Shown: piece after piece, positions 17,229-17,438 of the stretch | How positions within the stretch are numbered: the first letter of the stretch is position 1 | Layout of the letters: each line of letters starts with the position of its first letter | Assembly: GCF_003334765.1 (NCBI RefSeq) | Contig: NZ_QOWT01000002.1 | Source: Escherichia coli | GTDB taxonomy: Bacteria; Pseudomonadota; Gammaproteobacteria; Enterobacterales; Enterobacteriaceae | Strand: one strand, 5' to 3' | DNA: 64,000 nt | Made by a program: the position numbers and the translations under genes | Notes under the pieces: generated by a model | The model's database searches: none | Told to the model about the DNA's origin: nothing | Seen by the model: only the letters and a program-made list of their open reading frames with translations

Positions 17229-17280
17229 AAATAGCCCGATGGATTTATCATCGGGCTGAGATTTATGACAAACGCAAAAC

Positions 17281-17380
17281 TGCCTGATGCGCTACGCTTA
17301 TCAGGCCTACGTGGATCGATCAATTTATTGAATTTACACAATTTTGTAGGCCGGATAAGGCGTTCACGCCGCATCCGACA
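17281..17380. repeat. REP pair (BIME-like) in the narP/ccmH convergent spacer
   Basis: tgcctgatgcgctacgcttatcaggcctac and gtaggccggataaggcgttcacgccgcatccgacat in opposite orientations. Confidence 0.8.
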
Positions 17381-17438
17381 TAAACTAAGCGCACTTTGTC
17401 AACAGTCTAGCCCGATGGCATCACCATCGGGCCTCTTT

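Follow-up and report, generated by a model that had tools for sequence, protein, structure and literature searches.

BIME-1, a bacterial interspersed mosaic element also referred to as RIP or RIB, is defined as a z1 and a y repetitive extragenic palindromic (REP) sequence with a conserved L linker between them, present in single copy (PMC3333891). [quoted passage not shown] We analyzed a 64,000-nucleotide stretch of Escherichia coli DNA (assembly GCF_003334765.1, contig NZ_QOWT01000002.1; hereafter the window), in which the 210-bp spacer between the convergent genes narP (ending at 17228, + strand) and ccmH (17439-18491, - strand) contains one BIME-1 unit, named REP160 in EcoCyc (bioRxiv 10.64898/2026.03.23.713779), with a copy of the same host hairpin at each of its two ends. 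As described below, we consider it probable that this hairpin-length target duplication was made when BIME-1 inserted and that the element was later deleted precisely in most E. coli. BIME-1 itself, its integration host factor (IHF) site, its position at gene 3' ends and its polymorphism among strains are already known, and the abstract of Bachellier et al. 1997 reportedly mentions excisions of whole BIME-1 units; what is new is the duplication at the flanks of the element and its recurrence at other loci. The accessible literature yielded no account of host sequence duplicated over the length of a hairpin, although the older BIME papers may contain one; if the duplication was already described there, the present finding is a well-documented example of a known BIME-1 polymorphism.

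The narP-ccmH element agrees with described BIME-1 units in its z1-L-inverted y order, its single copy, its location between convergent genes, its homologous L linker and the presence of full-length paralogs in every genome. It differs in that BIME-1 is described as REP-linker-REP, whereas the unit here has fixed outer ends and is accompanied by a hairpin-length duplication of host sequence. REPINs (Bertels and Rainey 2011) are likewise inverted REP doublets that form a long hairpin, are vertically inherited over long periods and are lost in some lineages. What remains after their excision is one palindrome made of REP halves that belong to the element, and no target duplication is reported (PMC3337134), whereas the palindrome left at narP-ccmH is a terminator hairpin of the host and lies outside the element. 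MITEs share with the unit a length of ~150 bp, flanking direct repeats, presence/absence polymorphism and possibly inverted ends, which are imperfect here (GAGACTGATGACAAA and TTTGTCAACAATCTGA). However, their duplication is short and of a fixed length set by a DDE transposase, and that found here is ~20-29 bp and comprises one whole hairpin. We know of no transposase that binds BIME-1 ends. The window is K-12-like, its coordinates being converted to those of MG1655 by adding 2,273,919, and the spacer is composed of the following features.

17226-17228, + strand: narP stop codon TAA, followed by the A-rich tract AAAT to 17232 (from the sequence and the open reading frame list)
17233-17257: hairpin 1, the left copy, AGCCCGATGG-ATTTA-TCATCGGGCT (repeat search, terminator scan)
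17258-17281, + strand: z1-side terminal segment GAGATTTATGACAAACGCAAAACT, 24 nt (family consensus GAGACTGATGACAAACGCAAAACT)
17282-17310, + strand: z1-type REP GCCTGATGCGCTACGCTTATCAGGCCTAC (sequence)
17311-17345: L linker, 35 nt (sequence, Rfam near-match, paralog alignment)
17346-17379, - strand: y-type REP, inverted, GTAGGCCGGATAAGGCGTTCACGCCGCATCCGAC (sequence)
17380-17408, + strand: y-side terminal segment ATAAACTAAGCGCACTTTGTCAACAGTCT, 29 nt (family consensus ...GCGCACTTTGTCAACAATCTGA)
17409-17433: hairpin 2, the right copy, A-GCCCGATGG-CATCA-CCATCGGGC-C, with the stem-loop at 17410-17432 (repeat search, terminator scan)
17433-17443, + strand: U-tract CTCTTTTTATT, overlapping the ccmH stop codon (17439-17441, - strand)

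Hairpins 1 and 2 constitute a 25-nt direct repeat with 84% identity, an exact match of 11 nt and a start-to-start distance of 176 nt. As each of them is palindromic, the two also repeat each other in inverted orientation, and the pair doubles as the arms of a 31-nt inverted repeat. The pattern GCCCGATG-N3-14-CATCGGGC occurs at two places in the window, which are these two hairpins, against 0.00 expected from shuffles. The predicted stability is -15.4 kcal/mol for hairpin 1 and -17.7 kcal/mol for hairpin 2, the latter value being also given by a published SEnd-seq table (bioRxiv 10.64898/2026.03.23.713779). A terminator scan called hairpin 2 on the + strand, with the T-rich tail CTCTTTTTAT. On the - strand it called hairpin 1, which has ATTTTTATTG as its tail; the AAAT tract behind the narP stop codon is the U-tract of hairpin 1 when read on the - strand. 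In these two orientations both hairpins display the GC-rich stem-loop plus U-tract of an intrinsic terminator. Neither has a U-tract on its other strand, and the BIME-1 end comes immediately after hairpin 1 on the + strand. It looks as if the A-tract and the T-tract of what is apparently one bidirectional terminator had been divided between the two hairpins.

An earlier reading of this DNA, made by a model from the letters alone (hereafter the sequence-only reading), had noted that the two hairpins share a stem and bracket a pair of REPs in the narP/ccmH spacer, and that a T-rich tract follows the second on the + strand. Both observations were borne out, the REPs between the 25-nt repeats being the z1 and y sequences listed above. 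It had also proposed a genome-wide search for further copies of the stem, and here the result was negative: in 5,426 complete E. coli genomes, on which all E. coli occurrence counts in this work are based, no dispersed copies of the hairpin exist, the stem being found at 1-2 places per genome, all of them narP-ccmH. In this search, a BLAST with the single-hairpin allele described below, each short allele gave one occurrence of the hairpin and each long allele two, and no other place in the genomes gave any. The GTAG/CTAC tag of REPs is absent from both hairpins on either strand, and their stems are adjoined by TGAG and CTCT. Since the hairpin is found solely at narP-ccmH in E. coli, it is part of the locus and not of a mobile element. 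The two hairpins are copies of one narP/ccm host terminator.

The long allele, with two hairpins, is carried by 1,505 of the genomes (28%). A short allele, found in 3,911 (~72%), is exactly 176 bp shorter and has one hairpin, AAAAATAGCCCGATGG-CATCA-CCATCGGGCCTCTTTTTA (also read AATAAAAATAGCCCGATGG-CATCA-CCATCGGGCCTCTTTTTATTTA), in the form of a bidirectional terminator with A-tract, hairpin and T-tract. The hairpin copies abut the element ends exactly, and loss takes the element plus one copy.

The same anatomy is present at other BIME-1 loci. At yqjF-yqjG, the second-best paralog, the unit is flanked by two copies of a wholly different hairpin, in the layout aaaaACGAGGAG-cgttt-CTCCTCGTtt, element, aACGAGGAG-tgttc-CTCCTCGTtttttt. 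Four more MG1655 loci (gloC-aspC, ydgA-uidC, yfeW-yfeX and pitA-uspB) were found through 8-mers of the BIME-1 ends located beside hairpins in the published SEnd-seq terminator table, and each of the four carries, at the opposite end of the element, another copy of the hairpin peculiar to that locus. For a total of seven BIME-1 loci, the 45 nt on either side of each element were aligned locally and the score was compared with those of 1,000 shuffles. At six of the seven the best alignment is a direct repeat of 20-29 nt, with a score reached by none of the 1,000 shuffles at each; the left-hand copy of the repeat stops at position 0 or -1 from the element and the right-hand copy begins at +1. These flanking repeats are different hairpins, each specific to its locus, around elements of 149-153 bp, and the repeat length (~20-29 bp) tracks the length of the hairpin at each locus with no fixed number. 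The seventh locus, fepA-entD, which lies inside an operon, has no abutting repeat (768 of 1,000 shuffles score as well). Five of the six repeat-flanked loci are situated between convergent genes, and the yqjF and yqjG genes are in tandem. The loops of the paired hairpins differ at three loci besides narP-ccmH, where the copies are unlike each other at 4 of 6 loop positions, and the loop differences are concentrated in unpaired bases. At yqjF-yqjG both loops show a C-to-T change relative to an inferred CGTTC progenitor loop, which was not found in any sampled yqjF-yqjG allele.

All six repeat-flanked copies are polymorphic for presence and absence, occurring in 1% to 52% of the E. coli genomes.

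narP-ccmH: long allele in 1,505/5,426; short allele shorter by 176 bp
yfeW-yfeX: long allele in 1,400/5,426; short allele shorter by 182 bp
ydgA-uidC: long allele in 1,751/5,426; deletion size unresolved by the shorter matches
pitA-uspB: long allele in 1,941/5,426; short allele shorter by 173 bp
gloC-aspC: long allele in 2,811/5,426; short allele shorter by 172 bp
yqjF-yqjG: long allele in 78/5,426; short allele shorter by 178 bp

The deletion corresponds to the element plus one hairpin copy at every locus where its size is readable (5 of 6, ydgA-uidC being the exception), and exactly one hairpin is present in the short alleles read at yqjF-yqjG (two alleles), yfeW-yfeX and pitA-uspB. At fepA-entD, where flanking repeats are absent, the copy is present in 5,346 of the 5,426 genomes (98.5%), as repeat-mediated deletion predicts.

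Several side observations were made on the distribution of these copies. Occupancy is similar at four of the K-12 BIME-1 loci (26-36% of genomes) and reaches 52% at gloC-aspC. In the O157 genomes sampled, the element is missing at narP-ccmH, yfeW-yfeX and yqjF-yqjG. There are hints that whole lineages differ in how far they retain BIME-1, which may be connected with the status of RAYT, the REP-associated Y1 transposase, reported in PMC3333891. At ydgA-uidC (392-416 of its stretch) the z1-side terminal segment GAGACTGATGACAAACGCAAAACT is replaced by TTCATCTGAAAACAAACCAGAGATT, and the hairpin duplication is still there.

The interior of the narP-ccmH spacer, 17258-17408, is a complete 151-bp BIME-1/RIP with z1 REP, L linker, inverted y REP and conserved ends. 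Assignment of the first REP as z1 and not z2 is based on comparison with a tandem z2 cluster elsewhere in the window together with the BIME-1 definition in PMC3333891. The z1-side segment aligns with the fepA-entD, yqjF-yqjG, yfeW-yfeX, pitA-uspB and gloC-aspC copies, the L linker is conserved in those of fepA-entD and yqjF-yqjG, and the unit ends (GAGACTGATGACAAACGC... and ...GCGCACTTTGTCAACAATCTGA) are conserved across the aligned copies. At least 80% of the 151-nt unit is covered by some place in every one of the 5,426 genomes, and in genomes without the narP copy the best paralog spans all 151 nt unbroken with 87-89.5% identity. Because of these full-length paralogs and the conserved ends, the outer segments are counted as part of the repeated unit. 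The extreme ends GAGACTGATGACAAA and TTTGTCAACAATCTGA are imperfect inverted repeats (~79% over 14 nt here) that are kept across copies, and the copies are 7-13% apart from one another. Judged by its sequence, the interior is a canonical dispersed BIME-1. In the L linker, positions 17318-17330 (GATCAATTTATTG) are a predicted IHF site with one mismatch to WATCAANNNNTTR, which we take to be the IHF consensus. The Rfam family ES036/CssrF matches 17303-17345 on the - strand with 35.6 bits (E=7e-5), just under its gathering score of 37.6, and naRNA4 gives a partial match to the y REP (17349-17385) that is well under its gathering score; both families are REP- or BIME-derived. A BIME-1 end motif was not found in a scan of viral contigs, and ~1 Mb of fetched non-Escherichia loci contained no full BIME-1 units. 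As a minor point, position 17378 within the y REP is an A here (CATCCGAC) and a G in MG1655 (CATCCGGC), which leaves the REP stem one pair weaker.

The polarity of the narP-ccmH polymorphism was addressed with orthologous spacers from other species, gathered by scanning genome contigs with NarP. The two-hairpin BIME-1 layout is also found in E. albertii, with flanks ~89% identical to the window, and in two further non-coli Escherichia lineages, with flanks 90-94% identical, and in all three the divergence of the spacer matches that of the flanks. The two-hairpin form is therefore ancestral, at least to the ancestor of the sampled Escherichia, and it follows that the allele most common in E. 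coli arose by a precise deletion from one hairpin copy to the other. These sequence comparisons indicate that the polymorphism within E. coli arose by loss and not by recent gain. The single hairpin of E. whittamii differs in its loop (GGATTAACC), which suggests an independent loss with a different junction. In Citrobacter, Salmonella and the more distant genera sampled, no BIME-1 ends are present at the narP spacer, which has other REPs or short hairpins instead. Within E. coli, the long alleles occur on flank haplotypes 97.9-100% identical to the window (strain H3 is 100% identical over the narP-ccmH stretches searched, up to 1.9 kb). A neighbour-joining tree built from the flanks shows the long alleles intermingled with the short ones (HS-OkiPb01675, UTME-3-O157 and window/EH08-CP55), which reflects either recurrent deletion or short-tract recombination.

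Two unusual long alleles were observed in E. coli. That of UTME-3 (spacer at 679-888 of its stretch) has a variant hairpin 2, GGCCTGATGG-AGTCA-CCATCGGGCCAC, and a right flank, CCACTTTTT, that is otherwise found in UTI89-type short alleles. Given these mixed features, the short alleles were not all derived from a K-12-type long allele by one simple event. R32_14_1F, a RefSeq E. coli, has a diverged long allele (516-760 of its stretch) and a ccmH 3' end like that of another Escherichia species, and its sequence suggests introgression across narP-ccmH.

With these results, the preference of the sequence-only reading for a small duplicated module or miniature-element footprint over two independent terminators is upheld by the single-copy alleles shorter by 176 bp, by the position of the hairpins at the element ends and by the five other loci. 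One refinement is that the hairpins do not belong to the mobile element, the stem being unique to the locus in E. coli. The sequence-only reading had reasoned that a stem confined to this locus and absent from relatives would point to chance similarity; the stem is confined to the locus in E. coli, yet it is present in E. albertii and others, and the comparison of homologous spacers that it had recommended revealed the two-hairpin form in E. albertii and two other Escherichia lineages.

We propose, as the probable history of the locus, that a hairpin-length target duplication was made on BIME-1 insertion and that precise deletion followed in most E. coli. The starting state would have been a narP-ccmH spacer with a single bidirectional intrinsic terminator, consisting of an A-tract, a GC-rich hairpin and a T-tract. 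The 151-bp BIME-1 would have inserted before the known Escherichia species diverged, leaving the 25-bp hairpin at both of its ends. If a hairpin or cruciform was extruded, staggered cuts at both of its feet could have opened the site, or a hairpin-recognising nuclease might have acted alike on both strands; fill-in after staggered cuts would duplicate exactly the hairpin. The obvious candidate enzyme would be the REP-associated Y1 transposase TnpA-REP/RAYT, although this is the weakest step of the proposal. In vitro cleavage at C|T sites in and near REPs is reported in PMC3333891. The more specific suggestion, that structure-directed nicking of both strands at the feet of terminator hairpins inserted the BIME-1 units and thereby duplicated the whole hairpin, is put forward tentatively, and we would give it somewhat less than an even chance. 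After insertion, the direct copies around a 150-bp near-palindrome are a substrate for the precise 176-bp deletion, by which the compact single terminator is restored.

Parallels for both halves of this scheme exist in other systems. In Cas1-Cas2 spacer integration, which is IHF-dependent in E. coli, staggered attacks at the borders of a partly palindromic ~28-bp repeat lead to its duplication. As at the BIME-1 loci, a whole repeat is duplicated on either side of the inserted DNA and an IHF site (predicted here) is involved; in contrast, no cas gene or CRISPR array is present here, and the IHF-like site is inside the element and not in a leader. CRISPR repeat duplication is the closest geometric analogy, and one of outcome only. 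For the loss, precise excision of Tn10 and Tn5 proceeds by replication slippage, as a deletion between short direct repeats around long inverted repeats. There too, a long palindrome lies between direct repeats, and the site is restored when the element is lost together with one of them, but at the BIME-1 loci the repeats measure 20-29 bp and each is itself a hairpin. Hairpins are also targeted by other mobile elements, with class C group II introns sitting after terminators and IS1397 and ISKpn1 in REP loops. In these the site is likewise apparently chosen for its hairpin structure, a safe place downstream of genes, but they do not duplicate the whole hairpin.

If the structure-directed insertion is correct, the duplication is the first recognisable target-site signature for REP/BIME (REPIN) elements. 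It would account for their placement at gene 3' ends and for their easy loss by recombination between the hairpin copies, and would explain the widespread strain-to-strain polymorphism at the six repeat-flanked loci. BIME-1 units with fixed ends that land on intrinsic terminator hairpins and duplicate them would also offer a testable insertion chemistry (the cutting of hairpin feet and the enzyme responsible), a testable choice of target (terminators as safe sites) and a testable route of loss by repeat-mediated precise deletion.

Several points weigh against the proposed history of the locus. The four loci taken from the terminator table were preselected for one abutting hairpin, so that only the second copy is independent there; among the loci free of that preselection (narP-ccmH, fepA-entD and yqjF-yqjG) the pattern is present in 2 of 3. 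The sole repeat-free control, fepA-entD, is located in an operon, and selection could also explain its retention. The outgroups cover narP-ccmH only, and at the other loci gain and loss are not separable; for pitA-uspB no outgroups were obtained, the UspB-encoding contigs found being from E. coli only. No near-identical source was found for the rare yqjF-yqjG copy, whose best paralog is 92-93% identical, and there is therefore no evidence of recent mobility. To our knowledge, Y1/HUH transposition as described for IS200/IS605 makes no target duplication. The mechanism is inferred from end-point anatomy only. Finally, fill-in would produce identical copies, so the loop differences require later divergence, which is plausibly put down to age and to unconstrained loops.

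Among the alternatives, one accepts that the duplication is real and supposes that the hairpin was copied across after BIME-1 had landed, either by template switching or slippage at the near-palindrome or by gene conversion, and was then kept by selection. The spacer would be suited to such an event, being a long imperfect palindrome with 31-nt and 14-nt inverted repeats whose minimum-free-energy fold is a single long hairpin (z-scores -7.9 and -7.5). Copying could also have been favored between convergent genes, as at five of the six flanked loci, where each gene gains a hairpin of its own, and the different loops of the two copies are in keeping with it. However, a repeat that lies within a nucleotide of both element ends and has the length of the hairpin at six loci is a regularity not expected from secondary copying, and the tandem-gene locus yqjF-yqjG is duplicated too, with no second gene in need of a terminator. 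We regard this explanation as unlikely, though it is the best of the alternatives.

It is also conceivable that the flanking hairpins are degenerate REPs and that the locus is a nested or four-unit BIME, the similarity of the hairpins stemming from the REP family. The stem GCCCGATGG/CCATCGGGC does match the arms of the REP GCCCGATGGCGCTACGCTTATCGGGCCTAC, which is located at the same post-narP position in several Citrobacter genomes and inverted beside ccmH in others, and which is dispersed, with at least 35 distinct contexts in metagenome contigs. Moreover, hairpin 1 of E. albertii retains the GATG/TATC G.T signature, and the EcoCyc REP160 appears to reach the last stem base of hairpin 2, as deduced from a 29-nt overlap in the table. 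Nevertheless, the hairpin lacks the GTAG/CTAC tag and is found nowhere else in the 5,426 E. coli genomes, whereas the related Citrobacter-type REP is a longer, tagged sequence, and five loci with hairpins unlike REPs exhibit the same flanking duplication. The target terminator may descend from an old REP, which leaves the duplication unexplained; as an account of the locus, the degenerate-REP hypothesis seems improbable. In most cases the 30-mer GCCCGATGGCGCTACGCTTATCGGGCCTAC has an inverted y-type REP as its partner, and it seems to be what corresponds in Citrobacter-type genomes to the E. coli z1.

A further alternative reverses the polarity, with the single-hairpin allele ancestral in E. 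coli and the K-12-type allele arising by recent BIME-1 insertion or by import from another species. The long allele is in only 28% of genomes, and some long alleles are clearly introgressed (the ccmH end of R32_14_1F). This is outweighed by the orthologous long alleles of E. albertii and the two other Escherichia lineages, which have diverged in line with their flanks, and by the E. coli-specific flank states that the K-12-type long allele shares with short alleles (AATAAAAATAG on the left, CTCTTTTTA on the right). The long alleles further reside on several E. coli flank haplotypes (those 97.9-100% identical to the window), and BIME-1 copies that are 7-13% apart are at odds with a recent burst, so that recent gain is very improbable.

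Still less can be said for a reading in which the hairpins form the mobile element's own terminal inverted repeats. They do repeat each other in inverted orientation besides the direct one, but their sequence is unique to narP-ccmH, other BIME-1 copies share the end bases and then continue into unrelated hairpins, and the short alleles keep one copy, which makes this account hardly credible. Two independently evolved terminators, one per convergent gene and alike by chance or convergence, would fit the U-tract on a single strand of each hairpin, but the 11-nt exact and 25-nt overall match against zero expected, the exact 176-bp deletion that merges both into one hairpin and the same pairing at five other loci leave this idea with almost no standing.

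The target duplication proposed here alters how transcripts would end at the locus. For bidirectional terminators of convergent genes (Ju et al. 2019 SEnd-seq, via bioRxiv 10.64898/2026.03.23.713779), the single-hairpin allele has the expected form, whereas the long allele splits the A-tract and the T-tract between hairpins 176 bp apart. Term-seq (Adams et al. 2021, PMC7815308) places a + strand 3' end, in two tables, at MG1655 2291359, that is window position 17440, which is the end of the U-run after hairpin 2. The same tables assign no 3' end to narP and give none for hairpin 1, and a narP entry is absent from the TERMITe supplement. A SEnd-seq overlap region at MG1655 2291323-2291356 (window 17404-17437, hairpin 2; row 181 of bioRxiv 10.64898/2026.03.23.713779) is listed there among the bidirectional terminators in log and stationary phase, with narP and the ccm operon as its genes. 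Since only hairpin 2 keeps a + strand U-tract, narP mRNA reads past hairpin 1; the Term-seq and SEnd-seq data support a long-allele narP mRNA that extends across hairpin 1 and BIME-1 as far as 17440, with a 3' untranslated region (UTR) of ~212 nt. The statement of the sequence-only reading that the hairpins are not two independent terminators is thus correct as to their origin, which is not separate, and incorrect if taken to deny terminator function, which is kept, hairpin 2 being the mapped narP 3' end. We also considered ccm transcripts running on to hairpin 1 and rejected them, because SEnd-seq sets the - strand boundary just past hairpin 2. From its sequence, hairpin 1 is predicted to act on the - strand as a back-stop that terminates ccm read-through. 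The overlap terminators listed from SEnd-seq include the two hairpin copies of pitA-uspB; ~60% of REPs are located between convergent genes, and REP-containing convergent pairs are more highly expressed (bioRxiv 10.64898/2026.03.23.713779). The long allele swaps a compact terminator for a ~212-nt 3' UTR with BIME-1, which may alter mRNA stability and read-through, for example of narP.

Other features were recorded in the window and in the sequences compared with it. At 30480-30985 of the window there is a tandem BIME-2-type cluster of at least 4-5 units, made up of y REPs in alternation with long z2 REPs at a period of ~113 nt, and more y-type REPs, one single and one pair, lie at 10163-10196 and 42853-42998. 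The autotransporter gene yejO (13670-16261, - strand) is an intact open reading frame of 863 codons in the window, whereas its MG1655 version is a pseudogene split by IS5K; the window therefore comes from a strain other than MG1655. In Citrobacter sedlakii, a perfect tandem duplication of ~34 bp (GTAAGGTTACTCCTTCGGCGGCGAAAGCTGCTGTAA, present twice) extends over the ccmH stop codon at ~2785-2855 of its stretch.

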